64,000 bases of DNA from an uncultured virus (IMG/VR IMGVR_UViG_3300010160_000040). Taxonomy: Duplodnaviria; Heunggongvirae; Uroviricota; Caudoviricetes; Crassvirales. A program made the position numbers and the translations under genes. The stretch lies in the IMG/VR virus record IMGVR_UViG_3300010160_000040; one strand, 5' to 3'. Below are positions 22,009 through 52,065 of this stretch, one piece after another. The first letter of the stretch is position 1; the number at the start of each line of letters is the position of its first letter. The notes beneath the pieces are model-generated. The model made no database searches. It was not told the DNA's origin and saw nothing but the letters and a program-made list of their open reading frames with translations.

Positions 22009-22079
22009 CTTTACTATATACAAGATTACAAATAATAAACATATTCCTTTAACCACAACAAACATAATACGATAAATAT

Positions 22080-22625: not shown

Positions 22626-22659
22626 ATTTAATTAATTAATAACAAATAAAATCTTAGTT

Positions 22660-23709: not shown

Positions 23710-23744
23710 TACAATAATACTTAATTAAAGTATGAGGAAAGTAT

Positions 23745-25781: not shown

Positions 25782-25810
25782 TAATAATAATAACTAGTAA
25801 GAGGAGATAG

Positions 25811-26404: not shown

Positions 26405-26729
26405 ATACGATGAAGGTAAACCTTGTCTAAGTGATGTGCCTCAATTAGCTTTAATGAGTGTGGCTAAAGTATTTAATTATGGAGCTAATAAATACTCCAA
26501 ATTTAACTACTCACACGGTACTAATTGGTTACGTTATTATGACGCAGCTCAAAGACATATGAGTTCTTGGATGACTGGAGAAGATATTGATGAGTCTACC
26601 CATAATCATATAGATCATGCAATAGCTAGTCTAATGATGCTTAGAGAGAACATACATCTTGAAAGAGGAGATGATGATAGAAATGATATTTACAAAAAAC
26701 AACAATTAAAATTAGAATTCAATGAATAA
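26382..26729 (+). CDS. DUF5664 dATP/dGTP diphosphohydrolase-domain protein
   Basis: KYDEGKP, V..YGA.KY..FNY..G, RY.DAA.RH, GED.D....H..HA. Confidence 0.8.
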   Translation: MKAKETIKYDEGKPCLSDVPQLALMSVAKVFNYGANKYSKFNYSHGTNWLRYYDAAQRHMSSWMTGEDIDESTHNHIDHAIASLMMLRENIHLERGDDDRNDIYKKQQLKLEFNE

Positions 26730-27210
26730 AGAAGCAGAACAAGTAGTTTACGCAGAAGACATGGTTAAACCAAATGTATTTGTACAATTTAAGAAGTTAG
26801 ATGAAAAGGCTGTAATTCCAACTTACGCTAACATAGGAGATGTAGGAGCAGACTTAACTGCTACTTCAGTTAATCATGTACCAGCTACTATTGAAGAAGC
26901 TGCTTACTATGAGTATGGTACTGGGTTAGCTATTAAGATACCTGAAGGTTATGGAGGTTTTATATTTCCTAGAAGCAGTATATCTAAAAAAGATTTATTT
27001 CTTGCTAATGCGGTAGGAGTAATTGACCCTAGTTATACAGGCGAAATTAAACTACGCTTTAAATACAAAACTTTACCTAAGTTGTATGATGCAGGCGAAA
27101 GAATTGGCCAGCTTGTTATATTACCAATACCAACTATTAATTTTAGTGAAGTTTCAGAACTTCCTATAACACAACGTGGAAATGGCGGATTTGGAAGCAG
27201 CGGAGCCTAG
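26722..27210 (+). CDS. dut: trimeric dUTPase
   Basis: GADL, PRSS, GVID.SYTGE, RIGQL, RGNGGFGSSG. Confidence 0.93.
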   Translation: MNKEAEQVVYAEDMVKPNVFVQFKKLDEKAVIPTYANIGDVGADLTATSVNHVPATIEEAAYYEYGTGLAIKIPEGYGGFIFPRSSISKKDLFLANAVGVIDPSYTGEIKLRFKYKTLPKLYDAGERIGQLVILPIPTINFSEVSELPITQRGNGGFGSSGA

Positions 27211-32199: not shown

Positions 32200-35100
32200 T
32201 TAGTATTTACTAGATTGAGTTGTTTTTGTAGGCTCAAATAAGTTTATAAACTTATAACCTGGTATCCATTTATAAAGATAATAGAGTTTTTCTTTTTTAT
32301 CTTTTATCTTCTTGTTACCCATAATGTTAACTAGACTTCTACCTTCGGCCTCTCCAAAAATTTCATCAAACCCCTCATCAAAAGTATTTTGTATAGTTTT
32401 AGTAGCATTAATTACTAGTCCTAGTATAGGTAAAGGATTATTAAGTAATGTTATCCAATCTCCAGGATTAACTATTCCCATAAGCTCTCTACGATACCTA
32501 TTAAGAATTCTATAAGACTGGCGCGTTGCCCAATTTTTTTTAGCGAACTTATCGTCATCATCAAACCCTCCGCCAAGTATTCCAAGTAATACTAATAAAG
32601 TTAAAATATAAGTTATTTCAGTTGCTAAAGCTCTAATCTGACCTTGCTTATATTCTAAAAAATCTTCAAATGTAAGGCTACCATTTTTAACAGCAGGTAG
32701 ATGTTCATTCTCTTTTAAAAAATTATCATATAAAACTCTAGCTCTATTTTCATTAACTTGAGCAAACTTACTATTTTTAACAAAAGGTAGCATATTAGCA
32801 GCTAATTTAGCACTAGCTAATCCTACATATTTAACTAAATTTAATATTCCAACAGCTTCAGGATCTACTACGTCACTTAATAAAGCAGTATATCTAGCTT
32901 CAGTAACTGTATTAGTTTGTGGATTGTATCTTAAAGATTGTTGTGATAGTATATTATCTACTCCTCTAAATCTCTCTTCAGCTAAAGCAGGTAACCAGTT
33001 TCTAAAACTCATAAATAGCTTACCCATAACAGTCATGTTAGCGGCATTCATATCTTCAGAGTTCAGACCTCCTTTAATAGTTGTAGTAGTATTTAATACA
33101 AGGTTTCTTAATTGAGAATATAACTCAGCATTAACATTACCTTCTTTATCAATTAAACCCTCCACAATAAGAGCTTCTCCTTCTATCTTACTATTATCTA
33201 GTAAAGACTTTAAACCCTCTTCTAAACGCTTAGCATTAAGTCTAACTAAATTATTATTTTTATCTAGCCCATAGTTTTGTAACATAGAATACATTACTTG
33301 CTCATCTATATGTTCATCACCTACTCTAAATCCAGCAAATAAAGTATTATAATTTATATTTTGAGCTAAATTATTTTTCCCCATTTTAGCTACCTTATCT
33401 AGCCAAGGCATAGATTTACGATCTTCAGGTTTACCTGCATAAGGCTGTATAAAATTAGCTAGAGCAAAGTATAAAGGCTTTTTTTCATTAGAGTATCTAT
33501 CTTTTAAAGACTTACCCCACATAGTTTTAGTATAGAAATATCCTTTATCACCCTCAAAGAAAGCATTAGTTCTAGCCCCCATTAAGTTAACTAGATTAGA
33601 TATAGGAGAAATAGCAAGTTCTTTTATTTGTTGATACTGCTTAATTTTTAAAAGGCCTTGTTTAAGCTTACTAGGTTTATCTTTATAGAATACTCCGTAT
33701 AAGTGATAGTTAACCATATCTTCAAATAACCTAGACTCCTCAGTTTGAGGACCTTCTTCTGTTTGAGCTTTTTGATCATTGTTAATTCTAACTTCTTTAC
33801 CATCGGCTGTAGTTTGGTTAACACCTTTTTCAGCAAGTATATCTTTTAAAGCTTCAATAGTACTCTCAGTATGTTTTAAGTTATTATAACTAAAAGCCAT
33901 TTGAGCAAATACAGCTAAGCTAGAAGACAAATCAAAAGACTTTAAAGTATTATCTATATCACCTTGGTTATTAACTAAAGGATTAATAAAGTATTTAGGT
34001 ATCTCTCTTTTTTGTAATCCAGTAGCTGGGTCTATTTCTCCTCTTAATGTTATATAACCTTCTTTATAAAGAATAGTATTGTTTTCTTGAACACTCATTA
34101 TGTTCATAAAGTTTTCTTTAGAAAATACAGTAGAGCCATTCATAAACTGCTCCATAGTATTACCTTTTATCCAAGGTATAAAGTTATTAGGTACTTTAGT
34201 ATACTGTATATCAAGCAAGCTTCTAAATTGCTCCATACTTTCTTCCCAGAAATTATAGTAATTTAACAAAGCTGGAGTACTTCTAATCTTAGCATATTCA
34301 GGATTAAGTAAATTTTCACTTACTTTAGAAGGATCTATTTCATAATACTTATACCAATAATCACTATATTTACTAGTAGAAGATTTTAAATCTGGATTGT
34401 TCTCATTAATCCATTCAATTAAATCCTTATTAGTTTGTATATCACCCATAGTATAAGAATTTATAATCATGTGTTTTTGTAAAGCTGCTTGATAAAGCTC
34501 TTTATAGTCTTCTTTAAGTTTTACCATACTATCTAAAGTTTTGTCATCTTTCTCTCTTCTAGCTTCTTCTAATTCATCATATAACTCACTTTTAAACTTA
34601 GTATGTAAATTACCTGACTTCTTGTTAATAAGTAAATCATAAACTTTAAAACCACCTAATCCATTAGCAGCACCCCAAACTTGAAGTTCTTTATTAAGTT
34701 TATCTAATTTATCAGTAAACTTTATTAAATCTAATCTTGTTTTAGTGTTAGCACCTTCAATAATAGTTCTAGCTTTTTTAAATATAGTATTGTTAATATT
34801 ACTAAATCTACGGAGCAATTTATCAAACCAAGTTAAGTTTTTATCTCCGAGCATAGCAGCTCTGTCATCTAAATTTAAAGTTAAATCTATTGTTCTTTGT
34901 TTTAAAGCCTCTTCTAGATTATTAGCAACACCTGCAATAGTATCTAAGTTAGCAAAATATGCAGCTCTATCTAAAGCATTAGCTTTATCCTCAGGAATAC
35001 TTTTAATAAAGTCAGGGGTACTATTAGCAATAGCTTTAAAGAGTTGTAAATCCGACATTAAATCATCAATCTTAGATAGGTTTAAGTACAAAGTGTTACC

Positions 35101-36369
35101 TTCTTCTAGGTAATCGGATTTAAGCGTTCTATTAATATCTAAATAGCCTTGTATAAGACCATTATAAAGTTCAGTAAACCCTTTAATATCTTTCTTTAAC
35201 ATAATAGAGTTAATCAAAGAATTTAACTTCTTAATTCTACCTCTAAGTTTAAAAGCTTCAGCTGTTTCATCAGCTAATCTTTCTAACCTTTTAGTTAAGT
35301 TATGCTTTAATTTATTAGCTTTTGATAAAGCTTCATCTAATCCAGCTACCCCAGTACTTTCTAAAGTAATAGGAATAGGAGTAAGAAATTTCTTTTTATC
35401 AGAATCCTCTCCCATTTTAATAGTAGTAATAACATCAGTTAGCCTAGCACCTTCTTTTTTAGTAGGATCAGCTTTTTTCTTCTCAACAAATCCTATTTGA
35501 ACAGGCATAATTCTAGCAAACCTAAAATTTTTAACTCCTGTCTTCTTATACATATCCATAAGAGTAGGTAATTGCACATTAAATTCTTCTATCTTGTAAC
35601 CAGGAATCCAATCATCTTTAACTATATTACCATTAGCATCTAGCTTACTATAATGAGGAGTCATAGTTTTATAATCAAGTACCCCACCAGATTTATCACT
35701 AAAAAGAAAAAATAAGTCAGCTGTACCCCCTTTAGAACCATCAGTATCTAAATTAAAATCTTCAGCTTGAATAAATACCTTTTTAGTAGGGTCTATATCT
35801 TTTTGTATATCAATACCTAATTTAACTAACTTTTCTATCTCAAAAAACAAAGCTTCAAAGTCTTGAGGATTTAATCCTAACTCATCACTAATTTCTTGAA
35901 CAGTTTTTAATTCTTCCTTACTAGGAGGGTTTTCTATAAATTTAGCATACTTATTCTTAAAAATATTAGTTAAATCTTGAGCAGCTTTATGAAACTTAGT
36001 ACCTCCATTTCTTTTTACTTCATTATCAGGTAAGTTAGATAGCTCATCAGAAGCTTCTTTACCTCGTCTTTTAACAAAAGCAGCTTTGTTTTTATCTGTT
36101 ACACGACCTTGAACAGCTAACTCTTTAGTATCTATCCAAACATATCTAGAAGTCTTACCTGAGCCATCTAAATGTAAGCCTTTAGTAAGTTTACTATTGT
36201 CTACAAGCTCAGTTGTAAATAATCCTTGTAGTATCTTTCTTCTAGCTATAACATCTTCAACTGTATCATTAGGATTTCCTTTTAAGAATTCAAATTTCTT
36301 TTGGTTAACTAAATCTCTAACAGTTTGAATATCAAACTTACTTGGGTCTATTGGACAATTTACTGGCAT
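32200..36369 (-). CDS. large virion (ejection) protein with N-terminal PD-(D/E)XK-like domain
   Basis: 1389 aa; GT.FH...E...GTADL...LDYKT; hydrophobic helix near the C-terminus; last gene of the RNAP cassette. Confidence 0.75.
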   Translation of the reverse strand: MPVNCPIDPSKFDIQTVRDLVNQKKFEFLKGNPNDTVEDVIARRKILQGLFTTELVDNSKLTKGLHLDGSGKTSRYVWIDTKELAVQGRVTDKNKAAFVKRRGKEASDELSNLPDNEVKRNGGTKFHKAAQDLTNIFKNKYAKFIENPPSKEELKTVQEISDELGLNPQDFEALFFEIEKLVKLGIDIQKDIDPTKKVFIQAEDFNLDTDGSKGGTADLFFLFSDKSGGVLDYKTMTPHYSKLDANGNIVKDDWIPGYKIEEFNVQLPTLMDMYKKTGVKNFRFARIMPVQIGFVEKKKADPTKKEGARLTDVITTIKMGEDSDKKKFLTPIPITLESTGVAGLDEALSKANKLKHNLTKRLERLADETAEAFKLRGRIKKLNSLINSIMLKKDIKGFTELYNGLIQGYLDINRTLKSDYLEEGNTLYLNLSKIDDLMSDLQLFKAIANSTPDFIKSIPEDKANALDRAAYFANLDTIAGVANNLEEALKQRTIDLTLNLDDRAAMLGDKNLTWFDKLLRRFSNINNTIFKKARTIIEGANTKTRLDLIKFTDKLDKLNKELQVWGAANGLGGFKVYDLLINKKSGNLHTKFKSELYDELEEARREKDDKTLDSMVKLKEDYKELYQAALQKHMIINSYTMGDIQTNKDLIEWINENNPDLKSSTSKYSDYWYKYYEIDPSKVSENLLNPEYAKIRSTPALLNYYNFWEESMEQFRSLLDIQYTKVPNNFIPWIKGNTMEQFMNGSTVFSKENFMNIMSVQENNTILYKEGYITLRGEIDPATGLQKREIPKYFINPLVNNQGDIDNTLKSFDLSSSLAVFAQMAFSYNNLKHTESTIEALKDILAEKGVNQTTADGKEVRINNDQKAQTEEGPQTEESRLFEDMVNYHLYGVFYKDKPSKLKQGLLKIKQYQQIKELAISPISNLVNLMGARTNAFFEGDKGYFYTKTMWGKSLKDRYSNEKKPLYFALANFIQPYAGKPEDRKSMPWLDKVAKMGKNNLAQNINYNTLFAGFRVGDEHIDEQVMYSMLQNYGLDKNNNLVRLNAKRLEEGLKSLLDNSKIEGEALIVEGLIDKEGNVNAELYSQLRNLVLNTTTTIKGGLNSEDMNAANMTVMGKLFMSFRNWLPALAEERFRGVDNILSQQSLRYNPQTNTVTEARYTALLSDVVDPEAVGILNLVKYVGLASAKLAANMLPFVKNSKFAQVNENRARVLYDNFLKENEHLPAVKNGSLTFEDFLEYKQGQIRALATEITYILTLLVLLGILGGGFDDDDKFAKKNWATRQSYRILNRYRRELMGIVNPGDWITLLNNPLPILGLVINATKTIQNTFDEGFDEIFGEAEGRSLVNIMGNKKIKDKKEKLYYLYKWIPGYKFINLFEPTKTTQSSKY

Positions 36370-37850
36370 TTTCTTTCTAATTTATTTTCTTGTACTAATT
36401 CTTCTATAATATCTTCGTTACTAGTTTGGTAATATAAATTTTTGTATTTACTTTCTTGTAAATTAACAGGTAATACATTTATGTAGTCAGTCTGATCTTT
36501 AGGTCTATCAAACATTAACTCTTTTTGTCCTAATGGGGATAAACTAAGTTTACCTTCAAAAATATCTTGCCATGATGCTACATTTTCAAAAGATTCTTCC
36601 TCATTACCACCAATAAAAAAATCTAAAGTTTTAATTTTTTTAGCTCCTTCTAATATAGGCAATAAATTATTATTTGGACCATAAACATTTATATCAAACA
36701 TTGGAGCACTAGGATTAATTTTTCTTTTAGTTTCTATTCTATATCCTTTTGAAGCTTGTAAATAACTTTTTGTAATATAATTATTAGACTCATTTTTTAT
36801 TTCTCTTAATTTAACAATATTTGGTTTATCCATTAACTTATCAAAAGCTTCTTGCCCATTTTCATCTAACCATTTTTGAGATACTTTAAAATCAAGATCA
36901 TGAATCTGCTCACCTCTCCATCTTTCTATATTTGTTTGTTTAGCAATAGCTAGACTGCCAGCAAGTTTAAATGGAAGATTTTCTGTGTACTCATTAACTA
37001 TTTGTTTTGAAAGAAGGTCTTGATCTAAAGCCTTATTATAATCTACATTTGAGTAAGCAAATGATTTTTGAGATGTTACTAATGATTTATCTCCAGCTAG
37101 CATTCCTTCAGCTATTTTTACAACAGCTTGTTTATCATAGACTATACGATTATTTTTTTTAATATTAAATTTACTACGGATAGATTTAAAGAACTCATCA
37201 ATTAAAGCTTTAATTTTTTGTAATAATGTTTTTTCAACAGGATTTTTAGATGTGTATTGATTAACAATTGCATCTCTTATAAGATGTCCTAAAGCTTCTA
37301 TTTTAACTTTATTTTCATCTTTATAAATTGGCATATATTGTTTTTTAACACTATTATATCCTGACCAACTTTCTATATTTGTAAAAGCCTCTTTAATTAA
37401 TGGATGGTTTTTACCCATAAGCATAACTATCATATGAGCAGCTTCTTCAGGTACTGTAGTTATGTTTCTTTTAGATGATAAATATATAAGCTTTTGTATA
37501 ACATCTGTAGCCCCTAAAGCATCTACACCAAATCTTTTTTTAAAGTCATTTAATTCTTTAGTTGTTACCCCAAATTCATTAAGAAATAAAAGAAGCTGGT
37601 CATCAAGTTTTTTTTCAGCCGCAGGAAGTTTTGATTTATCAAGTTGAAAAAAAGAATTATTATCTACTTCTGGTTTAACACTCTCCATAGTAGTAATACC
37701 CAACTCTTGTAAAGTCGGGTATCTATTGTGTATTCCAGATTCAGTCATCCATTTAGAAACCATCATTTCAAATTCTAATGGCTGCTTTTTACTTTCAGCT
37801 AATAACTTTTGGAATTCTGGGTTACTAGAAGTTATACAGAATGTAGCCAT
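36360..37850 (-). CDS. virion-associated protein with zincin-like (EExxH) and nucleotidyltransferase-like (GS...DxD) domains
   Basis: PEEAAH; LAGSLA...HDLDF...LDFF. Confidence 0.6.
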   Translation of the reverse strand: MATFCITSSNPEFQKLLAESKKQPLEFEMMVSKWMTESGIHNRYPTLQELGITTMESVKPEVDNNSFFQLDKSKLPAAEKKLDDQLLLFLNEFGVTTKELNDFKKRFGVDALGATDVIQKLIYLSSKRNITTVPEEAAHMIVMLMGKNHPLIKEAFTNIESWSGYNSVKKQYMPIYKDENKVKIEALGHLIRDAIVNQYTSKNPVEKTLLQKIKALIDEFFKSIRSKFNIKKNNRIVYDKQAVVKIAEGMLAGDKSLVTSQKSFAYSNVDYNKALDQDLLSKQIVNEYTENLPFKLAGSLAIAKQTNIERWRGEQIHDLDFKVSQKWLDENGQEAFDKLMDKPNIVKLREIKNESNNYITKSYLQASKGYRIETKRKINPSAPMFDINVYGPNNNLLPILEGAKKIKTLDFFIGGNEEESFENVASWQDIFEGKLSLSPLGQKELMFDRPKDQTDYINVLPVNLQESKYKNLYYQTSNEDIIEELVQENKLERKCQ

Positions 37851-38260
37851 TAGTGTAAGTTTTCTAATTTATAAATTACGTGAGCAAATTGTTCTAATAT
37901 ATTATCAATCATTTGCTCTATATATCCTTCAGTAACTCTAGCTCTCATAGCCTCAATCTTAGCCATCTCTTTCTTAATATAAGAGATAGGCTCTACATTA
38001 TTAGTAATCATCATTGATGAATAGTTTAACATAAGACCAGTTTTAACAAAACTTTTCTCTACTAAATCATCATTTAAATCAGCTAATGATGAGTAGAATG
38101 CACCAAGTGCCTCATGCATTGCAAATGATTTATCTCTTGCTTGTAGATGTACTATATGCATTTGAATTTCAGCTTCAAATAAGCATTGTGATATAGCTTG
38201 TACAGCCATTTTAGTTGATCCGCTAGGTTCCATTTGACTTCCTTTTAATTTAGGTAACAT
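37850..38260 (-). CDS. ferritin/Dps-like four-helix protein
   Basis: HIVHLQ...SFAMHEALGAFY..L.DL.DDLVE; ends YKLENL. Confidence 0.75.
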   Translation of the reverse strand: MLPKLKGSQMEPSGSTKMAVQAISQCLFEAEIQMHIVHLQARDKSFAMHEALGAFYSSLADLNDDLVEKSFVKTGLMLNYSSMMITNNVEPISYIKKEMAKIEAMRARVTEGYIEQMIDNILEQFAHVIYKLENLH

Positions 38261-38271
38261 TTTATTTTATT

Positions 38272-41200
38272 TTAAGTTAAACAAGATTTTAAAAACTCAA
38301 TAGTTGATTTTCTATCTTTTAGTAATTGAGCTTCTATTTGAATTAAAGCATTATTTTTATCAGCAGACATTTTTTTAGCTATCATATTATCTAATATAAT
38401 AACTTTTTGCTCATTTGTGAAATCTTCAAGGTTATAAAAAGTATCAGCTTTTTTATCTTCAGTAGAAGTAGTAGCTTGTGATTGAGTAGATACAGGTATA
38501 TCTCCCGTATTATCAATACCTATTTCAGCAAGTTTTGTATTAAGATAATTCCATATTTTAGGAGCACTGTCTTTCATATTAGAAATAGCACCTTTACCAA
38601 AAGGCATTTCTGCACCAAACTTAATACCATTATACTTCTTAGATGCCTGTTTAATAGTTTCTATTTCATCATCAATAATTTTCTTGTATTCATTAAATTG
38701 GTCATCTGTCCATTGAGTTCTCTTATCATCTACCATTGTAGTAATAGGATAAACATTTTTAAGACCTCTTGCTACAGCTTGTGTTTTACTTGCATATTTT
38801 TTATCTACACCATATTTTTTAGCATACCAACTGTTAGGATCAATAACTCCTGAGCCTGACGTTCTACCAGCATTATCTGTAAATAAATACATATACTCTG
38901 TATCTTTTTCAGCTGATTCTCTAGTAAATCTTTGTGATTCATTTAGAGGAATTACTTTAACACTAGTAGATGGTTGAGTAGATGTAGTAGACCCGCTAGA
39001 ACTTACTTCAGCAACTTTACCAGTTATTCTTTCCATAATATTTCTAACTTCATAACCATTTAAGTACTCTTCAATTTCAGCAGCTTTATTAGCAACTTCC
39101 CCAGTTAAAGGTCTAGTATAATCAATAGCATTAAACCCTCCTATAGGGCCGATACTCTCACTATTAACACCATTAATTAAAATAACTAACTTACCAGTAG
39201 AAAAATCCTTTTTAAACGGAGAAAATATATTACCTACTTTAGGTTTTTTATTAATTTGATTAGGATTAGCTAAGAAGAATTTAACATAGAAATCAGCGAG
39301 TACTTTATTAGTAATACCTTTAACATCCATAGTAGCTATAAAGTCTAATACTTTCTTTTGAGCTTCGTAAGGTAAAACCTTATTAAGTTGGTAAGTACTA
39401 TTACTTATACCAGATTGGAATATATTAAATACTATTAAATCATCATATAAATTTTCATCTATCTTTTTAATATCTGCAAATGCTTGAGCTAAACTATTAG
39501 CTTCGCTATCTGTTAATTTACCTGCATATAACTTTAAGTTATCTATCTTTTCATTCTCATTAATACCTAGCTTATTATCTAATTGAGCTACTAATTGATT
39601 AATTAAATAGTTATTTTCAAAAGCTGGATTCTTTTTAGCTTTAAGTATTCTTCTAGCTATACTATTATCACCTTTAAATAAAGTATCAAACTTACCTTTA
39701 AACTGTGTATTATTTTTAGTATTTTGAATTAAGTAGTTAATAAGGTTTTCATCAAATCTTTGTCTAGCTTTACTATTAATTTCTTTATTTTTAATATGGT
39801 CAAAAGCTTTAGCTCTTAAATCTTCTGTTAGATCTCTCATTCTTTCAGTACTCTTAGTAAGATAAAGTTGATCAAACCATTTAGATATTAACTCTCTAGA
39901 TTTAATAAAAGGAGTTAATAAACTATTGTTCATTAAGTCATCTATAGTTTCTTTACTAAATATACCATTTTCACCAGTAATCTCTTTATAAAGAGTTTCT
40001 AGAGCTTGTACGTCACTAGGACTTTTTTGATATTTAGTATCAGCTGATAGTTCAGTTTTAACATCTGTTATCTTATTAGCAGAATCTTCTATAGCTATCC
40101 ATGTATATAACTCATTTTGTTCATTAGGAAACTCTTTACTTAGATACTTAATAATATCTTCTTTTTTATTTAGACCTCTTTTTACACTAATTGACTTAGC
40201 ATTACTTTTATTTCTTAATCTATAGTATTCTCTTATAACAGGGGAATTAACTACAGAGATAATATCTGACACAGAGTACCCTTGTAATACCATATAACAA
40301 ACAGGATTTAAGGTATCTAGTACAATGTTAACAACAGCTGAATAGCTATCTTTAACAATATCTACCTGACTTGTAATAAGAGCAGACAATACATCTTCTA
40401 CTTCTTGTACATAATTTCCAATTTGTATACTAGTTATAGAAAACTTAGTACCATCTTTTAAAGATTTATTATACATTTCCATAATCTTATGGAATGTAAT
40501 CCAAGTAGCTACAATACCTACACCTTGTTTACCTCCTACATATTCTAAAGTTGATTTAACTAAAGAGCCTATTTTAAATATATCAGTAAAAGGTTTATTA
40601 ACAGAGTTATCAGTACCTAAAGTTTTCTTCTGCTCTATTTGAGCTAATTTTTGTATATCTCCTCCAGTAATAGGCTTTAAAAATCTAGCTATCCTAGCAG
40701 GGTTTAATAACATCTCTATTTCAACTTCTAGTAATCTAGCTTGTAATTTTTTAGTACCTTCTAACTTATCTGAAGATATAGTATTAAAGTTATCATCTAA
40801 GAAAGGTAAGAATAAACTTTCCTTATCTATATCAAAATCACCTCCAGTCTTTACAATAATCTCATTAGGTACTATAATAGTTTGAGTATACATTGGATAT
40901 AAAAACTTCTTAACTTGTAGTACATCATTAGAGCTAAACTGTTGATTAGGTATCCTTAAACCTTTAACTATAATTGGAGGTACAAAACCAGCTTCTATAT
41001 CAGCATTAAGTAAATCAATAGCCTTAATAATATCTTTAGTTCTGTACTTTTTAAATAGGCCAGGTAGCTTTTCTATTGGAAAAGGTAGTGCACATTCAGC
41101 TGGGTGTACTTCAATTATATTACCATCTTTATCATAACTAAATTCATAAAATTTTAAAAAAGCTCCGCCTACAGCTTTACCATTACTCGCTTCTCTATTA

Positions 41201-44200: not shown

Positions 44201-45087
44201 CATTCAATAGTAGGATTAGTTTTTCTCTCATTTTTAATAACTCTCATAAAAGCATTTATATCAGCAGGCTGATTAACAAATACATTCATTAGTAAGTCAT
44301 TAGCTTCACTTTGGGCAATAGGAGATTCTAAATTTAAGTTATCACTTAAAATAGCATTATTATAATCATCTACAGAGTATCCTGTAGGATTGTCTACTAA
44401 ATTTTGCTTACTTAACTTAGGTATACCTGATATAAGTAACTTAATGGCCCTAGAAAAACTATCTTTTCTATTCTGCTCTAAAGATTCAGTATTCCAATTA
44501 TCTCTAACTTCTTCAATAGAACTTTGCAATTCAAATGAAGTATCTTCATCACCTTCTTTAAATTTAAATAGGTTAGCTATCTTTACTTTAAATGTATTTA
44601 AAATAAGATTAGCATGATCACTATCTTCAGGATAGGTAAATTTAAAGTAGTCTGCTAGAAAACTAGTAGGAAAGTCACGAGAGATAGCAGAAGCTATTTC
44701 CATATGTCTAGGATTAGTACCATCAAACATACTAACCATATCTAATAAAGCTTCTTGATAAACTTGTTGGAATTTAGAAGTAGATAAAGTATCATCTAAT
44801 AGATTACTAAAATCATCTAGACTACTTAAATTATTTACTAAATTCTTTATAAAGTAATACTTTAAACCTTCAAATAATTCAGACTGTTCATTTGTAGATA
44901 ACTCAACACCTTCAAAGATAAACTTAGTCATAACCTTAGGGTCTAGACGTTTTATCTCTTTAACTTCTTGAGTAGTTGGTATTTTACTATTATTCTTATA
45001 GTAAAGTTTATAAGCATTAAGTTCGCCATATTGACTTACTAATGCTTTAAAATCTGGGTGTTTTGGATTAGGACAACTTTTAGCCAT
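38272..45087 (-). CDS. virion-packaged DNA-dependent RNA polymerase (crAss-type, single chain)
   Basis: 2271 aa; RIPNQ and the catalytic GGDFDIDK motif (~40822-40845). Confidence 0.88.
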   Translation of the reverse strand: MAKSCPNPKHPDFKALVSQYGELNAYKLYYKNNSKIPTTQEVKEIKRLDPKVMTKFIFEGVELSTNEQSELFEGLKYYFIKNLVNNLSSLDDFSNLLDDTLSTSKFQQVYQEALLDMVSMFDGTNPRHMEIASAISRDFPTSFLADYFKFTYPEDSDHANLILNTFKVKIANLFKFKEGDEDTSFELQSSIEEVRDNWNTESLEQNRKDSFSRAIKLLISGIPKLSKQNLVDNPTGYSVDDYNNAILSDNLNLESPIAQSEANDLLMNVFVNQPADINAFMRVIKNERKTNPTIEWLHQKVFYPEQFIFDDKGNVLSLKDNNESNLPRISLINKFISSFSNTKYEFINQVINGDEIKSQNADTNNMQNRMLKEWSGQLDIAFTENKSKIINTLNDKYSSEEEILKAIGFPLASKGVITSKKKIKVLAGSKTFFEVYAAFLGEFKTFIKNGGNPIDIFQQVGKEPSTINVLATAMIEFNAPYRNDYDNQLANVSGNNVSSINLNTYQTLVINNLNRVVDLVRDELGYDGVDADTFKDVYLKRLNEIYPEILNSWSYDSIWLNKYLAKGTKITMSLIAGTTADNDGLPTSKLVESDLWSSFLNNTLENNFPAIKHADRSMFPSYSFGYGVTDIFSDIASNYTPTSNWRSIFKGYLHDYFVSELKRVRKTRGDYKAYIENYDTLGQEFLVFNGILDTFKKDASHQARLEALINSDELDFTGNNFVNKQMDSWINDYFAKTKAESRLAGINELTPGAGLNKNVISNLTESFKSKPDTFEFYDEAIELAAAKFFVGAVEQSKLFLGDPAFYKIKGFTNNLNNARQVTAEESILIYDFVKRANMQSSTKQVMIVDNVTNSYLESLFNSPNYKIKLKDGEEFFYRKKFDGTLTELVIDDPRVVAHIREELAKIYQNDLESFEAYFPKGGFEETDGYSLGNIFFAAESIFRTEGISSSRLEVVKKELKALSANSQEELYGLYEIPESFDTPEKINNYMKNVIRPFTQQKYQYVGPNYMMSKENYAQQDPETRTGVISNRKNSYGMLIPSLIRGTILEDLNIFMLKNGIDTIHFASASKVGAPIRASNTRRLFYTPTIVDGQIVGFEGFNNEPLQPGDMGTLDYRYLGKQNEIAFEIKPKVTDSTQGRKTILSGIMEDGERPIDFNGSPEQWASLSDLDKLNQSKLWNNAVEYENIYSELVEQLTVELLNEYNTTEGTNSLTINNGAKFANLIRKAAVERGSPDNILEAITDWVNDEGGLKYIESLSNYPKIQYILTSLVTNNLLILKRNGTMLAQAPSTGWESGNREASNGKAVGGAFLKFYEFSYDKDGNIIEVHPAECALPFPIEKLPGLFKKYRTKDIIKAIDLLNADIEAGFVPPIIVKGLRIPNQQFSSNDVLQVKKFLYPMYTQTIIVPNEIIVKTGGDFDIDKESLFLPFLDDNFNTISSDKLEGTKKLQARLLEVEIEMLLNPARIARFLKPITGGDIQKLAQIEQKKTLGTDNSVNKPFTDIFKIGSLVKSTLEYVGGKQGVGIVATWITFHKIMEMYNKSLKDGTKFSITSIQIGNYVQEVEDVLSALITSQVDIVKDSYSAVVNIVLDTLNPVCYMVLQGYSVSDIISVVNSPVIREYYRLRNKSNAKSISVKRGLNKKEDIIKYLSKEFPNEQNELYTWIAIEDSANKITDVKTELSADTKYQKSPSDVQALETLYKEITGENGIFSKETIDDLMNNSLLTPFIKSRELISKWFDQLYLTKSTERMRDLTEDLRAKAFDHIKNKEINSKARQRFDENLINYLIQNTKNNTQFKGKFDTLFKGDNSIARRILKAKKNPAFENNYLINQLVAQLDNKLGINENEKIDNLKLYAGKLTDSEANSLAQAFADIKKIDENLYDDLIVFNIFQSGISNSTYQLNKVLPYEAQKKVLDFIATMDVKGITNKVLADFYVKFFLANPNQINKKPKVGNIFSPFKKDFSTGKLVILINGVNSESIGPIGGFNAIDYTRPLTGEVANKAAEIEEYLNGYEVRNIMERITGKVAEVSSSGSTTSTQPSTSVKVIPLNESQRFTRESAEKDTEYMYLFTDNAGRTSGSGVIDPNSWYAKKYGVDKKYASKTQAVARGLKNVYPITTMVDDKRTQWTDDQFNEYKKIIDDEIETIKQASKKYNGIKFGAEMPFGKGAISNMKDSAPKIWNYLNTKLAEIGIDNTGDIPVSTQSQATTSTEDKKADTFYNLEDFTNEQKVIILDNMIAKKMSADKNNALIQIEAQLLKDRKSTIEFLKSCLT

Positions 45088-45090
45088 TCG

Positions 45091-48000
45091 TTATTTTTTT
45101 TTAGTTCTATTTTGACCATTAAACTTATTTAGGTCACCTGTTTCAGTACCACTTGGTTTCTTAGTAGATGCTACTCCAGTACATTTTTTTATTTCTTCTG
45201 CTACTTGATCTACTGTTTTATCTTCATTAACTTTTTGATTAGAAGATACTTCTTTAACTGATTCAGGAGCTTCCTCACTTAAACCAGATAGTTGCTCATT
45301 AACTAACTTATCAATATTAGAAATTACATCAACAATATCATTTAATAATCCAGCATCTACTAATTCATCTGTTAGCTTATCTTTAAACTCTTCTACACTA
45401 CTAGATGTAATATTGTATGGTATAGGAGGTAATTTTTTTATAGTAGCAATAATTTTACCTATTGTACTATTATTTTGACCTGTAATATCCTCATCTTCTG
45501 AAGTTCCAGGCACCCCCTCGTCACCTTGATATTCAACTTCTTTATTACCAGGTGTTGCAAACATATTTAAAATTCGCAAAGCTTTTTTTTCTGCTTCAAC
45601 TCTTTTACTAGGTACTACTACGGGTTCTGATGTAGTAGGAAATAAAGACTCTCCATTCATAGTATTAGAAGGAGTAGTAACTACAGCAGTACCTTTATAA
45701 TAATCTTCTATATTTTGTATAAAAGCATCAAATGAGATGCCATACTTATTAAGAATAGTCATAACTCTTTCATGACTACTTTTATTTTTAGCTTTTAAAT
45801 TAACTACTAAATTATCTAATACTTCTTTATTACTATAGTTAGATATACTTGCTGTATTTTCTTTTGTAGCTTTTATAGGCTCTAATTTAGGAATAGTAGA
45901 ATCTATTTTAGATAGTAAAGAATTTAAAATATTAACAGTTTCTTGAAGCCACTTATTTCTATCTAAAGTGAGATCTTTACTTTTTTGTAATTTTTGATCA
46001 TTAGATAATGACTCATTACTCATTACATTAATTATCATATTAAAATCTAATTTATCAAGCTCATTACTTAACGATTCGTAATTTTTGCTATCAATTTTAA
46101 TATTTAAATTAAAGCTTTTGTTAATATATTCAACTAGTTCTTGAATACCTGTCGTTTTATTTGTAAGTCTATTTTCAAAAATAAATCCTATTCTACTAAA
46201 TAATGCAGCTCTAATAATTGAATCTAAACCTTTGTTTTTAATTATACTTCTAAAAACTTTTTCAAAATTAGTACCATAAATTTCAGGTGCTCTTAATCCA
46301 GCTTGTTCTGTAAATTTACTACTTTGATATATAAAACTACCATAATGAGCTTCTACTACTTCTTCAAATAAATTTTTAGCTGTTGGCACAGGAGTTGCAG
46401 AAGCACTAGCACCTCTTAAACCTGCTGGAAGATTTCCTCCAAATACTATTTTGTTTTCATCAAATTCCACCTCAGTAGGAGCATCTTTTCCAGCAGCTGG
46501 GCCTGATGAAGGTTTAGCGCCAGGAGTTGAAGCTGGTTTAGGAGCAGGTTCAGGTTCAGGTTGAGTTTGTAGTTTATTTAATATTTTAGGTTTACCATTA
46601 TTAGAACTATCTAATATAACATTTTTAGAAGCAAATAGCATCTTATTACCATTATATTTACTATTAGAACTAACAGCATTTGTAATTAAAATTGGATCTT
46701 TAGAGTTTAATAAGAACTCTTTATAGCCATTTGGATAAGTTTTCCAAGCTAATTCTCCTTTACCATTTATATAAGGGTGCTTGTAAAATTTATTTGTAGC
46801 AAACATATTCTTAGATATGTTATGTCTTTTAGTATCTAAGAAAGCCATAAAATCTAAATTATACTTAGGGTTATCTAAATTAGCTAAATCAATAGCAGTA
46901 ATAGCCCAACCTTGATTAGGGTTTGAGAAATATACTTTATTACTCTTTAAGTAAATAGTGTTCTTACTACCTGGATTTTTAGAACCTCCCCAAAATATAA
47001 TATTATTCATTAATGATAAAGTACCAGTTTTACCAAATATAGGTACATCTGTAACTTTCTCATTATTACCCATATTATCAGCTATATAGTAACTCTTACC
47101 ATCATTACCAATATTTAACTTTTTCTCACTAAGACTACTTTCTGTTTGTGTCCTAGATTGTTGTAAGTAGTATATAATAAGTTTCTTATCTTCTGTAGAT
47201 ATCTTTCTTTGGTTAGCATAGAAATACTCTTTAGTTTTTTTATTATAAACTATAACAGCTCCTTTCTTTCCATTTTTAATTTTAATTCCAGAACCTGGTA
47301 TTTCCCAAACCTCACTATTATCAATTACATAAACACCTATATTCTCTAAGTCTTCTGGTTTTTGAGAATCAAGACCTCTTTTGTTTTTTAATACTTCAGC
47401 TACTGAACTCATAGGAGATTTAGCAACATCTTTATTAGATTCTCTAGTTAAAAGAATACCATTAGTAACTCCAGGAGCTTTTAAATAAGTAGTTTCATTA
47501 GCTTCCATATTAGCTTTTAACTCTGCTATAAACTCGTTATAGTTAGCTTTAGCAAAATTTGTTACTAACTCTTTAAATTGTGAAGGAGTTAATTTCTTTT
47601 CTCCAACAGTAATATACTTAGTAGGATCTGTTAAATGAATGTTAGTAGGGTCTTTAACTTCCATACTAGCATTACGCATAAAGAAATTTACTAATGCATT
47701 TAAGTTAACTTTACTTTTACCTTTATTATCTATTAAAGTATCTGCTTTAGGTAAAAATGTATACACATACTTACCAGTTTTAGATACTTCACCTTGATCA
47801 TCTGACTTAACAAACTCTCCATCAGCAGTATTTACTAATACAGTAACTATATCATTTGCTGGATCATGAATTCCTCCACCATTAGAAATACGTTTTAAAG
47901 CATCTATTTTTAAATCAGCAGGTATCTTAGCACCAGATAAAAGATATGTTCTTAAAACATATTTAGAATTAGTTATATCAGGAGTATTTTGTTCTAAGAA

Positions 48001-51000
48001 GTTATTCCATCTTATAGAATCTTCATTTTTATTAATAACTGGATAACCATCTGCATCATAAACTGTTTCTAACTTACCTTCAGCATTAGTTTCATACTCT
48101 ACAGTCATATTAGTAGTATAAAATAAATGGTCAGATAGAGCATTACTATTTAAAACTCTACTAGCAATTTCTGTATGAATAGGTTTAGGATTAAATTCTT
48201 CATCACCTGCTTTTTGTGAATCAGGTAAATTACTAATTTCATCTTTTCTATCTCTATTAAGAATAGTAGAATATTCTATTTTTATAGATTGTAGTGCGTT
48301 ATTTAAATTTTCAAATAACTTTCTATTATTATTAAATCTAATTAGATTATTAATATCAATTAAATTTTGTTCTAATTCAGCTAATTGTTGTTTAGTAACT
48401 ACAGCTTCATTTTCTAATGATTGTCTATTTACATAATTTAAATTTAAATTTATCTCTTCTAAATCTTTATTAAATTCAGCTCTAGCTTCTTCAATTGTAA
48501 GATTATAAGTAGTAGCAAACTTTTTAAATATATAATCTGCTAAAGCTCTAATTTTAGGATCTTCTAATAATTCAGCTGTTGTTAAATTATATTTATCAGC
48601 AACTTTCCACTTAACTTTAAACCATTGAGGTAAGTCATCTATTTTAGTAGCAAATACCCAATTTTTAAAATCATCAGATTCATTTATAGCAGTTTGTAAT
48701 AGTTCAACTTGTTTTCTTAATGCTGCAATTTGTTCAGTAACATTATCTTTTAATATACTAAGTTGATTTAAAGCATAATCTATATCATCAGTATTAGCTA
48801 ACTCTTCTAAATCTTTAGAAAGTTTTTTAGCCCATATCTTATCAATAGACTCTAAGTTCATTTGATCTAACTTTTCTAAAAACTCATTTAAAGAAAAATC
48901 TAGGCCCTTTTTAAAAGAGTCTTTCATTTCTTCAACGACTAATAATAAATCATTCTTTTGAGAAGCTAGTTGATTAAATACTCTAGATATATCCTCTTTA
49001 ACTTTTTCTAATTCAGCTATTCTTTGTTCTAGAGCTTTTATAGATTTGTTAATAGCTCCTTTCTCTTTAATATTACCAACAAGTTTATAATACTCTTTTT
49101 GAAAAGCTAACTCTTCTTTTAAAGCATTTTGCTCAAGTAATACTTTTTTAGCTTCCTCTATAGTAGTTATAATCTCTTTATTTAAAGTGTTAGCAACTGC
49201 TTCTAATGCTTTAATTTTAGCAGCATTAGTTTTAATAGCTGTAGACTTTACTTTATTAATTAAAGTTTGTTGTTTATTAACAAAATTTATTTTATCAAAG
49301 TATTTAACTATAAACTCCTCATTAAATAACTGTAGTACACCTTTTTTATTTTTAACGTATTCTCCAGTTTTAATATTTTTTAATAGTAATCCTTTAGTCT
49401 TTCTATCCTCTATAATACTTTGTAGCTTATCATTATACTTTTGTATAATATCAGCTATCTTTTCTTTATCAGTAATAGGATCTAAACCTTCTAACGCTTT
49501 ATTTTTTTCATCTTCAAACTCTTTTCTTAGCTCTGTTATATTAATAGGCACTAATTCAAATGCAGTATTTTTACCAGCAACCTTCATAACAAATTGATTA
49601 CCAATAATTCCATTACCTCCTTTATCTACCCAACCAGCTCTTTTAGAATTTTCTCTAACTATGTTAATCTTTTCTTTATCAGATAGTTGTTTAGCCTCTT
49701 CAGCTGCTTTAGTATCAACAGCTTCTTTATCAGCCTTAGCTATAATATTTAAAGTTTGAGTAAAGTTATTATTAGTTAATCTAATCCAAGCAGAGTTCAT
49801 TGCTTTTCTTTCCCCTATTAATTGGGTTAAATCATTTAGCTTTTCTATTAAGTCTAATTGTTCTATTTTTGAAATATTTAATTTAGCAATAGAATCAATA
49901 GCCCCATCTAATTTATCTAAATCTTCAGTGGTTAAATTTTTAATAGTAGTTGGATTTAGTTGACTAAAATCTGCTAATACATAAGCATTATTAGTTACCT
50001 TCATAATAGTAGCAGTAACTTCATTATAAACATCTATAATTCGTTTATCCTGAGTTTCACCTAAATATAAACTTCTATTTAAAATATCTTTAATAGCTAC
50101 TTGTTTAGTTTTATCTCCATCAGAAACTAAAGCTATTTGTTCACCAAACATAGCTTCTAAATCTTCAGTAACATTTTTTAAATCTTCAACAGCTTTTAAA
50201 TTAGTGCTAGATTGTTTTCTAATGTAAGTCATTACCTCATCATCACTCCATTTAGCATCAAAAAAACTTTTTTTACCTTTAGTTTCATCTTTAGGGTCTA
50301 CTGGTATAGTATACTTATTCCTAATATCATCAGCAGACAATTTAGTTTCATCTTTTAACATATCAGAAAGCTCTTCATATTTACCAGCTTTGATATAAGC
50401 ATTAGCTAAATTATAAAACTTCTCATGTTTTAAAGATTCATAGTTATATTTATCACTACTTAGTAAGGCTTGTTGTTGTGCTTGATCTAAATTAGCACTT
50501 CTATTTAACATCTCTTGGAAGTTAATAATAGTTCTAGTAGGATCTTGTTTTAACTCTGCTGAGTACTCATTAAAAGCTTTATTAATTTCACCAGCTCTTT
50601 CTTGTGCTTCTACATTTTCAGTGTTAGCATCTTTAAAAGATTGGTAAAGTCCTGCACCAGGCATTATTAATCCAGTAAGGGCCCCTAAAAAATAATTAGT
50701 AAGACCTTCTTGATTAGTAGAATTAGATAGACCTTGGCCAACACTACTAATAATATCTGTAATACCTCCTTGCTTAGCTCCTGTAAATTTACCTGAATAG
50801 TAATCTTCAGCAGACTTTTGTACTACACCTTGGAAAAACTCTTCCATACCTTCTCTATTAGAAGATATAGCAGCTTTACCTAAAGTGCTATACCATTTAG
50901 GTTTAATAGCAGTAGCTATGTTCTCTCCAGCTTTTAACTCATTTAAAGCAGTCATCTTAATACTGTTTTCAAATCTCTTAGCATTTAAAGCATAGTTTTT

Positions 51001-52065
51001 TGCAAACATATCTCTATACCCAGCAAAGTTACTAGCTGTTAATAATACAGAGTTCCAAAGAAATTCAGCATTCTGAAATCCTTTAACATTCTCATCAAGA
51101 CTTTTTAACTTCTCTTCGTACTCTTGCTCCTTACCAGCTTTAATTCTATTAGTTGTAGGGTCAAAGTATTCTTCATCTAAAGCTTTTTTGTTGGTATCAT
51201 AGAATTGTCTGCCATTACCTAAAGCTTCTATCCTAGCTTCACCAGTTGCAGCTATAGCAGAGGAAGTTATTTGATTAGCCCTATTCCAATTTCTGTAAGT
51301 CTTAGCGCCTGATTCAAGCATACCTTTAACAGTAGCAGCTGTTGTATTAGTTAACTCAGGAGCTTGCTGTAATAATGCAATAGCTTCATCTATATTTTTA
51401 GCCTCTCCAGTAGCAATAGATTTAGTCATTTTATTAAATAACTCTACTTCTTTCTTTTGAGTAAAAGCTTTGCCTAAATTACTAAATAAATTACCGCTAA
51501 CCATACCAGCAGCCATAGCTCCTCCAGCAAACCCTAGATTCTTAATAAACATATCACCCCAAAAGTTAGCTGCTTTATCAGCATCAAACATTTGATCTAA
51601 TAATCCGCCTTCTTGTTCAGCTTTAGTTCTGTAGTTTGCAAAAGCACTTTCCATCCCTTCATTAAAATCCTGCATAGCATTACTAAAAGGATTGTCAACA
51701 AAAGCATTTAATAAATCTCCACCTGATTCTATATCTCCAGCTGCACCTTTAGCAATCATATTACCTATTCCATATACAGTCCCTCCAAAAGTATCTGCAA
51801 ATGTAGTAACAGCTAGTCCAGCTCCTTTAACTACACCATTAGCAAGTTGATCAATACCTGGCTGATTAATAGCTCTATGCTCATAAAAAGAATCCATAGG
51901 ATCACCTTCAAATGGTACCATATACCCTTGATCATACTGACTAACTTCTTCAGTAGGTAATATTAACGACTGTCTATTTTTATAAGGAGAGCCTATTATT
52001 CCTTGACTCTGCGCATTTGCTAGTAAAAAATTTATATCAAATGAGGGGTTATTATTTTCTGGCAT
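45091..52065 (-). CDS. giant virion/ejection protein, first gene of the RNAP cassette
   Basis: 2324 aa; Gly/Ala hydrophobic N-terminal helices, EG.EE..Q motif, long coiled coils, Pro-rich linker. Confidence 0.75.
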   Translation of the reverse strand: MPENNNPSFDINFLLANAQSQGIIGSPYKNRQSLILPTEEVSQYDQGYMVPFEGDPMDSFYEHRAINQPGIDQLANGVVKGAGLAVTTFADTFGGTVYGIGNMIAKGAAGDIESGGDLLNAFVDNPFSNAMQDFNEGMESAFANYRTKAEQEGGLLDQMFDADKAANFWGDMFIKNLGFAGGAMAAGMVSGNLFSNLGKAFTQKKEVELFNKMTKSIATGEAKNIDEAIALLQQAPELTNTTAATVKGMLESGAKTYRNWNRANQITSSAIAATGEARIEALGNGRQFYDTNKKALDEEYFDPTTNRIKAGKEQEYEEKLKSLDENVKGFQNAEFLWNSVLLTASNFAGYRDMFAKNYALNAKRFENSIKMTALNELKAGENIATAIKPKWYSTLGKAAISSNREGMEEFFQGVVQKSAEDYYSGKFTGAKQGGITDIISSVGQGLSNSTNQEGLTNYFLGALTGLIMPGAGLYQSFKDANTENVEAQERAGEINKAFNEYSAELKQDPTRTIINFQEMLNRSANLDQAQQQALLSSDKYNYESLKHEKFYNLANAYIKAGKYEELSDMLKDETKLSADDIRNKYTIPVDPKDETKGKKSFFDAKWSDDEVMTYIRKQSSTNLKAVEDLKNVTEDLEAMFGEQIALVSDGDKTKQVAIKDILNRSLYLGETQDKRIIDVYNEVTATIMKVTNNAYVLADFSQLNPTTIKNLTTEDLDKLDGAIDSIAKLNISKIEQLDLIEKLNDLTQLIGERKAMNSAWIRLTNNNFTQTLNIIAKADKEAVDTKAAEEAKQLSDKEKINIVRENSKRAGWVDKGGNGIIGNQFVMKVAGKNTAFELVPINITELRKEFEDEKNKALEGLDPITDKEKIADIIQKYNDKLQSIIEDRKTKGLLLKNIKTGEYVKNKKGVLQLFNEEFIVKYFDKINFVNKQQTLINKVKSTAIKTNAAKIKALEAVANTLNKEIITTIEEAKKVLLEQNALKEELAFQKEYYKLVGNIKEKGAINKSIKALEQRIAELEKVKEDISRVFNQLASQKNDLLLVVEEMKDSFKKGLDFSLNEFLEKLDQMNLESIDKIWAKKLSKDLEELANTDDIDYALNQLSILKDNVTEQIAALRKQVELLQTAINESDDFKNWVFATKIDDLPQWFKVKWKVADKYNLTTAELLEDPKIRALADYIFKKFATTYNLTIEEARAEFNKDLEEINLNLNYVNRQSLENEAVVTKQQLAELEQNLIDINNLIRFNNNRKLFENLNNALQSIKIEYSTILNRDRKDEISNLPDSQKAGDEEFNPKPIHTEIASRVLNSNALSDHLFYTTNMTVEYETNAEGKLETVYDADGYPVINKNEDSIRWNNFLEQNTPDITNSKYVLRTYLLSGAKIPADLKIDALKRISNGGGIHDPANDIVTVLVNTADGEFVKSDDQGEVSKTGKYVYTFLPKADTLIDNKGKSKVNLNALVNFFMRNASMEVKDPTNIHLTDPTKYITVGEKKLTPSQFKELVTNFAKANYNEFIAELKANMEANETTYLKAPGVTNGILLTRESNKDVAKSPMSSVAEVLKNKRGLDSQKPEDLENIGVYVIDNSEVWEIPGSGIKIKNGKKGAVIVYNKKTKEYFYANQRKISTEDKKLIIYYLQQSRTQTESSLSEKKLNIGNDGKSYYIADNMGNNEKVTDVPIFGKTGTLSLMNNIIFWGGSKNPGSKNTIYLKSNKVYFSNPNQGWAITAIDLANLDNPKYNLDFMAFLDTKRHNISKNMFATNKFYKHPYINGKGELAWKTYPNGYKEFLLNSKDPILITNAVSSNSKYNGNKMLFASKNVILDSSNNGKPKILNKLQTQPEPEPAPKPASTPGAKPSSGPAAGKDAPTEVEFDENKIVFGGNLPAGLRGASASATPVPTAKNLFEEVVEAHYGSFIYQSSKFTEQAGLRAPEIYGTNFEKVFRSIIKNKGLDSIIRAALFSRIGFIFENRLTNKTTGIQELVEYINKSFNLNIKIDSKNYESLSNELDKLDFNMIINVMSNESLSNDQKLQKSKDLTLDRNKWLQETVNILNSLLSKIDSTIPKLEPIKATKENTASISNYSNKEVLDNLVVNLKAKNKSSHERVMTILNKYGISFDAFIQNIEDYYKGTAVVTTPSNTMNGESLFPTTSEPVVVPSKRVEAEKKALRILNMFATPGNKEVEYQGDEGVPGTSEDEDITGQNNSTIGKIIATIKKLPPIPYNITSSSVEEFKDKLTDELVDAGLLNDIVDVISNIDKLVNEQLSGLSEEAPESVKEVSSNQKVNEDKTVDQVAEEIKKCTGVASTKKPSGTETGDLNKFNGQNRTKKK

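Follow-up and report, generated by a model that had tools for sequence, protein, structure and literature searches.

In the pre-ejectosome of cyanopodophage A4, electron cryomicroscopy resolved a disulfide between cysteine (Cys) 1715 of gp27 and Cys5 of gp26, the C-terminal helix of gp27 being inserted into gp26 and bonded there (PNAS 2025, PMC12002296). In the record of Anabaena phage A-4L, gp27 (1,717 amino acids, aa) has its sole Cys two residues from the end, gp26 (1,114 aa) has Cys5 as its sole Cys, and the two genes are adjacent. A comparable arrangement is found in a 64,000-nucleotide (nt) stretch of an uncultured crAss-like phage (IMG/VR record IMGVR_UViG_3300010160_000040), the whole of which is here called the window. 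In its virion RNA polymerase (RNAP) cassette, four large proteins carry Cys residues near the ends that face one another in gene order. Among the viruses of the human gut, crAss-like phages are the most abundant. The question addressed is how they pack and inject at least three proteins of 150-280 kDa, one of them the polymerase with which infection begins.

Other described systems share parts of this arrangement. Injected proteins that are nearly Cys-free, a giant virion RNAP among them, are found in the Schitoviridae (N4 gp50-52, DEV gp71-73; 0.00075% vs 0.865%), where the suppression of Cys was proposed to ease passage of the periplasm (PMC11445570). There, however, Cys is absent altogether, whereas crAss-like phages keep exactly those that face the ends. 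Polyvalent proteins are also giant, injected and multi-enzyme, but they combine single-polypeptide fusion with autoproteolysis, and 'cysteine' and 'disulfide' have 0 occurrences in the accessible text describing them (Iyer et al. 2017, PMC5512222). RNAP-cassette proteins of phi14:2 and crAss001 were identified as virion proteins by mass spectrometry (database records, PMC10172136); for the polymerase, packaging and injection are known only from the homologues in these two phages. The accessible part of the crAss001 atlas has 0 matches for 'cysteine' and does not discuss links between cargo proteins (PMC10172136), the phi14:2 polymerase preprint has 0 matches for Cys or disulfide (10.1101/2020.03.07.982082), and a 2026 paper on N4 states that crassvirus ejection proteins still need resolving (PMC13434306).

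The likeness to A4 consists of an upstream protein with a C-end Cys, a following protein with Cys5 and few or no other Cys, the crAss side being known from sequence. A4 differs in having a single link in a symmetric, ordered pre-ejectosome, with no RNA polymerase and no chain of three or four links. In the accessible part of the A4 paper the bond is a structural detail from which no rule is drawn, and 'cysteine' and 'crAss' have 0 occurrences (PMC12002296). No published description of a terminal-Cys rule for crAss phages was found in a search that did not cover subscription journals or supplements. The original prediction knew of no description of the mechanism; this holds as far as crAss phages are concerned, but not for the head-to-tail disulfide as such, which is known from A4. 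What is apparently new is an order-wide terminal-Cys rule in crAss phages.

The cassette and its terminal cysteines

The minus-strand gene order is p2324, p2271, a 136-aa DUF5856 gene, p496 and p1389, downstream of muzzle and cargo genes. The features are as follows, with putative links of the chain numbered by gene order.

45091-52065, minus strand: p2324, first putative link; homologue of crAss001 gp47 and phi14:2 gp67
45181-45183, minus strand: codon of C2295, the only Cys of p2324, 29 residues before the C-terminus
38272-45087, minus strand: p2271, virion RNA polymerase by sequence match, putative middle link; GGDFDID motif
45073-45075, minus strand: codon of head Cys5 of p2271
38281-38283, minus strand: codon of tail Cys2269 of p2271 (2271 residues), two residues following the Cys
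38275-38454, minus strand: tail module at the C-terminus of the RNAP, comprising its final 60 aa, a predicted three-helix bundle
37850-38260, minus strand: 136-aa DUF5856 / Dps-like gene (Pfam DUF5856 4.6e-11, PHROG 858 1.9e-15)
36360-37850, minus strand: p496, putative accessory middle link; body homologous to the N-terminal part of gp65/gp49-like proteins
37836-37838, minus strand: codon of head Cys5 of p496
36366-36368, minus strand: codon of tail Cys495 of p496, one residue following the Cys; the TGC overlaps the ATG of p1389
37659-37850, minus strand: head module of p496, residues 1-64; Cys5 in a predicted coil leader, then two helices
32200-36369, minus strand: p1389, last putative link; corresponds to the C-terminal part of a gp65/gp49-like protein
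36355-36357, minus strand: codon of C5, the only Cys of p1389, which is without a C-terminal Cys

In gene order, Cys is therefore placed at the C-terminal end only (p2324), at both ends (RNAP and p496) and at the N-terminal end only (p1389). The RNAP has two further Cys, C1332 and C1597, both in its core. All Cys positions that the original prediction gave for the four proteins were correct, and so was the resemblance it saw between the N-termini of the RNAP and p496, which both fit C.{5}PxFxxL. The four genes are not strictly consecutive as it had supposed, since the DUF5856 gene, which it overlooked, lies between the RNAP and p496. Cys is scarce in the ten minus-strand proteins (11 in 10,367 aa) in comparison with the plus-strand proteins (146 in 10,187 aa), and at the window frequency (157/20,554) the chance of finding Cys at one given residue in 3/10 proteins is ~5e-5. 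The window pattern is not a product of chance, and conservation in relatives settles the matter.

Several matches bear on the identity of these proteins. The DFDxD motif of p2271 is present as GGDFDID, with D418, F419, D420 and D422 invariant in a polymerase alignment with phi14:2, p-crAssphage, cr118_1 and crAss001. Moreover, p2271 aligns with phi14:2 gp66 (BLASTP, 26.9% identity over 431 aa, E 3e-11), and its tblastn matches comprise phi14:2 g066, annotated 'Catalytic RNA polymerase subunit', and 47 other crAss records. On these matches p2271 is identified as a virion RNA polymerase resembling phi14:2 gp66. A phmmer search of p2271 against PDB chain sequences gave 0 matches; its only Pfam match was DUF7831, just below the cut-off, and it matched no PHROG family. 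p2324 matches crAss001 gp47 (BLASTP, 24.7% over 818 aa, E 9e-40), and p496 has 485 homologues at E<=1e-3; neither these two nor p1389 matched any Pfam or PHROG family. Together, p496 and p1389 correspond to a single gp65/gp49-like protein elsewhere, which is unsplit in cr108_1 gp52, crAss001 gp49 and locus L001. Homologous proteins in the same order and with the same terminal-Cys pattern are found in phi14:2 (gp67, gp66, gp65) and PhicrAss001 (gp47, gp50, gp49); the window differs in that the gp65-like protein is split into p496 and p1389, with a new Cys pair, and in the presence of the DUF5856 gene. The three proteins sum to 5,398 residues in phi14:2 and have masses of 262.5, 276.9 and 154.5 kDa in crAss001 (PMC10172136).

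Junctions, splits and fusions in related loci

Eighty of 529 confirmed IMG/VR loci, retrieved by polymerase-core alignment and falling into 56 clusters at 70% identity, were surveyed. Open reading frames (ORFs) were called by one fixed rule, with TAG or TGA recoding allowed. A Cys within residues 2-8 counted as a head Cys, and one among the last 10 residues as a tail Cys. At the junctions flanking the polymerase ORF, a tail and head Cys pair was found in 75/88 cases, neither Cys in 10 and a mismatch in 3 (56 clusters). After the polymerase, 50 junctions had both Cys, two had neither and one had a tail Cys only; before it, the respective numbers were 25 with both, eight with neither and two with a head Cys only. 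A closer inspection of these two revealed an upstream Cys 17 residues from the end, resembling the window. In the tail-only case (L051), an insertion of three unrelated Cys-rich genes separates the polymerase from its head-bearing partner, which is found 6 kb further downstream. Of the junctions with neither Cys, five lie between a small Cys-free cargo protein and a fused giant after it. Among 47 control ORFs on the opposite strand, head Cys were present in 4/47 and tail Cys in 7/47, at an overall Cys content of 1.55%.

The terminal positions also stand out within the proteins themselves. Cassette proteins of at least 1,000 aa (n = 132) contain 84 internal Cys in 313,234 residues (0.027%) against 153 terminal ones, and in 99/132 all Cys are terminal. 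Proteins that come first in a chain were without a head Cys in 27/30 cases, the three exceptions starting less than 700 nt from the end of the fetched locus, and those that come last were without a tail Cys in 45/47, the other two being explained. The prediction that the first gene would have a C-end Cys only, the last an N-end Cys only and the middle ones both was thereby borne out across crAss-like loci.

Exact positions are more variable than the window suggests. Over 78 junctions the head Cys was residue 3 (34), 4 (22), 5 (13), 6 (6), 7 (2) or 2 (1), and the tail Cys was followed by 0-3 residues in 69/78. Cys at residue 5 and basic residues before the C-terminal Cys, which the original prediction had pointed out, hold for the window only; in relatives the N-terminal Cys ranges over residues 2-7 and the tails vary (..NNC, ..ICE, ..FKC). 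An effect of gene overlap, start context or some other property of the nucleotides at junctions might be considered, given that in the window the TGC codon for Cys495 of p496 shares nucleotides with the start codon of p1389 and that the median intergenic gap at junctions is 3 nt. However, gaps reach 696 nt, both TGT and TGC are used at variable positions, and the pair is kept across the three inserted genes of L051 and across opposite strands in crAss001, so that the probability left to such an artefact is negligible. In particular, the tail Cys of p496 as a by-product of gene overlap was rejected because L003 and L004 keep this Cys with the next gene 227 nt away; over the junctions in relatives, the Cys persists at gaps of 227-696 nt.

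Several loci read through TAG (Gln) or TGA (Trp), among them L039, L045, L065, L076 and L017; the terminal-Cys rule also holds in these recoded phages.

Terminal Cys are conserved in homologues of the RNAP, p1389 and p2324, as had been predicted. RNAP homologues have Cys at residue 3 or 5 in 14/15 and a Cys followed by 0-3 residues in 15/15; in two homologues of more than 3,100 aa with 25-29% identity, the terminal two are the sole Cys. Homologues of p1389 have exactly one Cys, at residue 3-6, in 7/7, down to 21% identity. In the p2324 family, the window protein included, 8/9 have exactly one Cys, 0-45 residues from the end, and the ninth has Cys3 and a Cys two residues from the end.

At least one tail and head Cys pair was found in 8/8 annotated crAss genomes examined. 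In phi14:2 the sole Cys of g067 is its last residue, g066 has Cys3 and Cys2179 of 2180 residues, and g065 has Cys3 only. In crAss001 the sole Cys of gp47 is at -2, the three of gp50 are Cys5, an internal one and one at -8, and gp49 has Cys5 only, a pattern that holds although gp47 is on the opposite strand. p-crAssphage, cr108_1, cr118_1, cr130_1 and cr6_1 each have a tail Cys before and a head Cys after a gene boundary. In crAss002 gp33 the head is seen from an internal Met 32 codons into the annotated gene (residue 33). The annotated start is probably wrong, because the usual head begins at this Met.

More generally, annotated or first-ATG starts look too far upstream in L009 (crAss002, 14167-26904), L001 (9962) and L002 (9287), where an internal Met gives the usual M-x-C head directly after the previous stop, as in crAss002 gp33.

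The fate of the Cys at splits and fusions is informative. Among polymerase ORFs with a complete 5′ end, a head Cys is present in 0/12 of those fused to a gp47-like part, whose catalytic motif is preceded by 2,931 or more residues, and in 30/32 of those with a shorter N-terminal part (split). A conserved anchor domain (approximately residues 1907-2090 of the fused protein of L026) lies between 600 and 1,350 residues from the starts of split ORFs. Break points thus fall in at least four different places relative to the anchor, each with a Cys pair, and since they differ it follows that the polyprotein was cut at several places, with a Cys pair at every cut. No internal Cys pair resembling a tail-head junction was found in 283 long proteins. 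A relic of a polyprotein cleavage site was considered and rejected, the fused proteins being without a tail-head relic and the break points differing.

Two loci illustrate the exchange of parts. In L079 a single 4,093-aa protein has Cys only at 3 and 4090. In L064, which is 84% identical over 2,604 residues, a 2,845-aa protein ends in Cys. After it comes a protein of 328 aa that begins with head Cys3, contains an ART-PolyVal domain and shares its 22-residue tail with the L079 protein. The same protein then follows downstream in both loci.

The possibility that each terminal Cys acts alone, as an anchor to portal, capsid or cargo protein 1 or as a site of modification after ejection, draws on the unpaired C-end Cys of p-crAssphage gp47 and gp48 and of crAss002 gp30. 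We regard it as very improbable, as it leaves the naked heads of first proteins, the naked tails of last proteins and the loss of both Cys on fusion unexplained; in L073 a 4,182-aa open-ended ORF has no Cys at all.

These unpaired C-end Cys lie upstream of the chain, in p-crAssphage (L008) gp47 (5600-8173, at -1) and gp48 (4685-5479) and in crAss002 (L009) gp30 (3472-5145), with an R-C-G-G motif in gp48 and gp30. In these gut cargo proteins the lone Cys may form tail-to-tail pairs among multiple copies.

Heads and tails also recur on different bodies. Residues 1-64 of p496 are found with 63-86% identity on nine proteins of 89, 237, 245, 302, 375, 383, 411, 541 and 884 aa, all with Cys5, a Cys one residue from the end and different bodies between. 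In these relatives of the window, payloads with ART-PolyVal, AAA_33/zeta-toxin-like kinase and GNAT-like domains sit between head and tail; the 89-aa protein (P0085), which was retained, consists of head plus tail only. By this recurrence the p496 head is a portable unit, in agreement with the suggestion that an accessory protein may join the chain by gaining both ends. Among the best 150 homologues of p496, a head Cys is present in 120 and a tail Cys in 63. The RNAP head (residues 1-44) shares 38.6% identity with that of cr108_1 gp52, a protein not orthologous to the RNAP.

The AlphaFold2 model of the p496 head (predicted local distance difference test score, pLDDT, 72.4) has a coil at residues 1-10, containing Cys5, and helices at 11-20 and 24-38. 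The last 60 aa of the RNAP have a mean column identity of 72% with an invariant K-S-C-L tail in the alignment, and are predicted to form a three-helix bundle (pLDDT 95.0, predicted template modelling score 0.80; helices 14-26, 33-46 and 48-58), with the Cys at the end of helix 3. A Foldseek search of this model against the PDB gave no match at E<=0.001.

Pairing within a protein needs to be weighed too, with middle proteins closing on themselves (own head to own tail) and the first pairing with the last, so that no linear chain exists. Sequence cannot assign the pairing in chains of three or more, and P0085 bears both ends on one small protein. Nevertheless, 16/26 complete chains consist of two proteins, in which an inter-protein pair is the only one possible. 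An exchange of bodies (L064 and L079; window and L014) also leaves the tail together with the head that the following gene encodes, and the A4 pair is inter-protein (PMC12002296). Self-closure is accordingly considered improbable.

A proposed disulfide-linked thread and the evidence against it

Comparison establishes the Cys rule and its order-wide conservation, the gain of Cys at splits and their lack at fusions, and it shows heads and tails to be modular. That Cys are paired at junctions, missing from the outer ends of the chain and lost on fusion indicates that a tail Cys works with the head Cys of the next protein. We put a probability of roughly 65% on the reading, drawn from these patterns and from analogy with A4, that end-to-end disulfides tie the injected giant proteins, the RNAP included, into one thread. 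The linked chain of the original prediction is thereby supported in part: comparison and one solved analogue give good support to the linkage, while its chemistry and purpose are putative.

The cassette would represent injected cargo, namely a gp47-like protein, the virion RNA polymerase, an accessory protein and a gp65-like protein. The tail Cys of each would bond by a disulfide to the head Cys of the following protein, and the virion would hold a polyprotein-like thread running from p2324 through the RNAP and p496 to p1389. The bond would form in the assembled or released particle and would secure equal co-packaging. The unfolded proteins would be threaded N-to-C through the tail, as proposed for crAss001 gp45 (PMC10172136), and reductants of the host cytoplasm would then separate them. 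The near absence of other Cys would keep the links unambiguous.

Each side contributes one Cys and no second ligand is conserved, so that a disulfide would be the simplest link in chemical terms; the removal of all other Cys, which fits thiol chemistry, favours it further, and the A4 precedent raises its odds. The crAss001 virion has disulfides elsewhere in the particle (PMC10172136). No phage thiol oxidase or thioredoxin was found among the 31 plus-strand window proteins scanned. An alternative is that heads and tails are non-covalent docking modules whose Cys pair binds a shared metal (Zn or Fe) or tunes the contact. This would suit a reducing cytoplasm, which disfavours disulfides, and the RNAP tail, a confidently predicted three-helix module, resembles a docking domain; the co-occurrence of the pair is compatible with any joint site. 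However, each partner contributes one Cys only, the surroundings of which vary freely with no conserved second ligand near the ends, a strong purge of other Cys is what thiol-disulfide chemistry predicts, and A4, the sole solved analogue, has a disulfide (PMC12002296). We therefore consider docking or metal binding unlikely.

A number of observations weigh against the disulfide-linked thread. Five polymerase-flanking splits are Cys-free (L017, L072, L056, L061 and L076), their parts being spaced by -28 (an overlap) to 243 nt; these may be frameshifts, introns or real non-covalent splits. Depletion of Cys is not absolute, because the window RNAP keeps its two internal Cys and gut crAss proteins have up to 26. 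The p2324 Cys is 29 residues from the end and that of crAss001 gp50 is 8 from the end, and the tail Cys of p-crAssphage gp47 has no head partner. Head and tail families co-vary, for which shared descent could account. The cytoplasm in which the proteins are made is reducing, and many of the hosts are gut anaerobes. The A4 precedent is an analogy, since A4 gp26, gp27 and gp28 gave no BLASTP match at E<=0.01 to 425 cassette proteins. Finally, several copies per virion were estimated for each crAss001 cargo protein (PMC10172136), which makes head-head or tail-tail pairs conceivable.

With L006 (cr108_1, 14220-25810) included, the spacing at Cys-free splits of the polymerase ranges from -28 nt (an overlap) to 290 nt; the cr108_1 polymerase is cut within its catalytic region (gp54 / gp53).

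Docking domains of polyketide and non-ribosomal peptide synthases, which are terminal modules that order separate subunits, and AB toxins, whose disulfide-tethered chain is freed by cytosolic reduction after translocation, offer functional analogies only. A more elaborate form of the disulfide-linked thread is possible but doubtful, and is put forward tentatively. Heads and tails might constitute a specific plug-and-socket code that splices any payload post-translationally (ADP-ribosyltransferases, kinases, acetyltransferases, even an empty 89-aa adaptor) into one thread of ~0.7 MDa, a mass estimated from the 6,480 residues that the four chain proteins sum to. Such a thread might enter the particle whole, pass N-to-C through the tail and be severed by reductants of the host, with reduction timing the release, and perhaps the activation, of a self-inhibited RNA polymerase.

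A simple order-wide sequence rule leads to a concrete and cheaply testable mechanism. Moreover, the rule accounts for the free fusion and splitting of cassette genes, identifies which neighbouring proteins are cargo, corrects start-codon annotation and suggests a natural route for loading foreign payloads into phage particles.

Neighbouring genes and further observations

The window belongs to a crAss-like phage. Its plus strand carries, as far as ~32 kb, the replication genes (DNA polymerase A, primase, dUTPase, ribonucleotide reductase and PhoH), and its minus strand carries the virion genes. Two genes upstream of the RNAP, on the same strand, were assigned by domain matches.

62544-63854, minus strand: muzzle protein (Pfam crAss_MUZ 1.1e-53)
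55770-57602, minus strand: cargo protein 1 (Pfam crAss_CARG1 3.1e-08)

Two proteins encoded here are Cys-free: one of 1643 aa (57609-62540, minus strand) with a peptidoglycan-binding domain, and the 610-aa protein of 55770-57602 (minus strand), in which the crAss cargo-1 domain is accompanied by a glycine zipper. They are likely to be envelope-crossing cargo that goes ahead of the chain.

The DUF5856 (ferritin-like) gene lies within the cargo cassette of this clade, being found in L003 and L004 and absent from L014. Its product has one Cys, the internal Cys26, which is conserved, and is probably not a link of the chain. In L003 (9689-12151) a shorter DUF5856 copy shares one frame with a p496-like gene.

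On the plus strand, a run of genes at 11322-16375 matches Peptidase_C26, COOH-NH2_lig, GATase_6 and Amidoligase_2, that is, glutamine amidotransferase, COOH-NH2 ligase and amidoligase genes. This run hints at a pathway for nucleotide or DNA modification.

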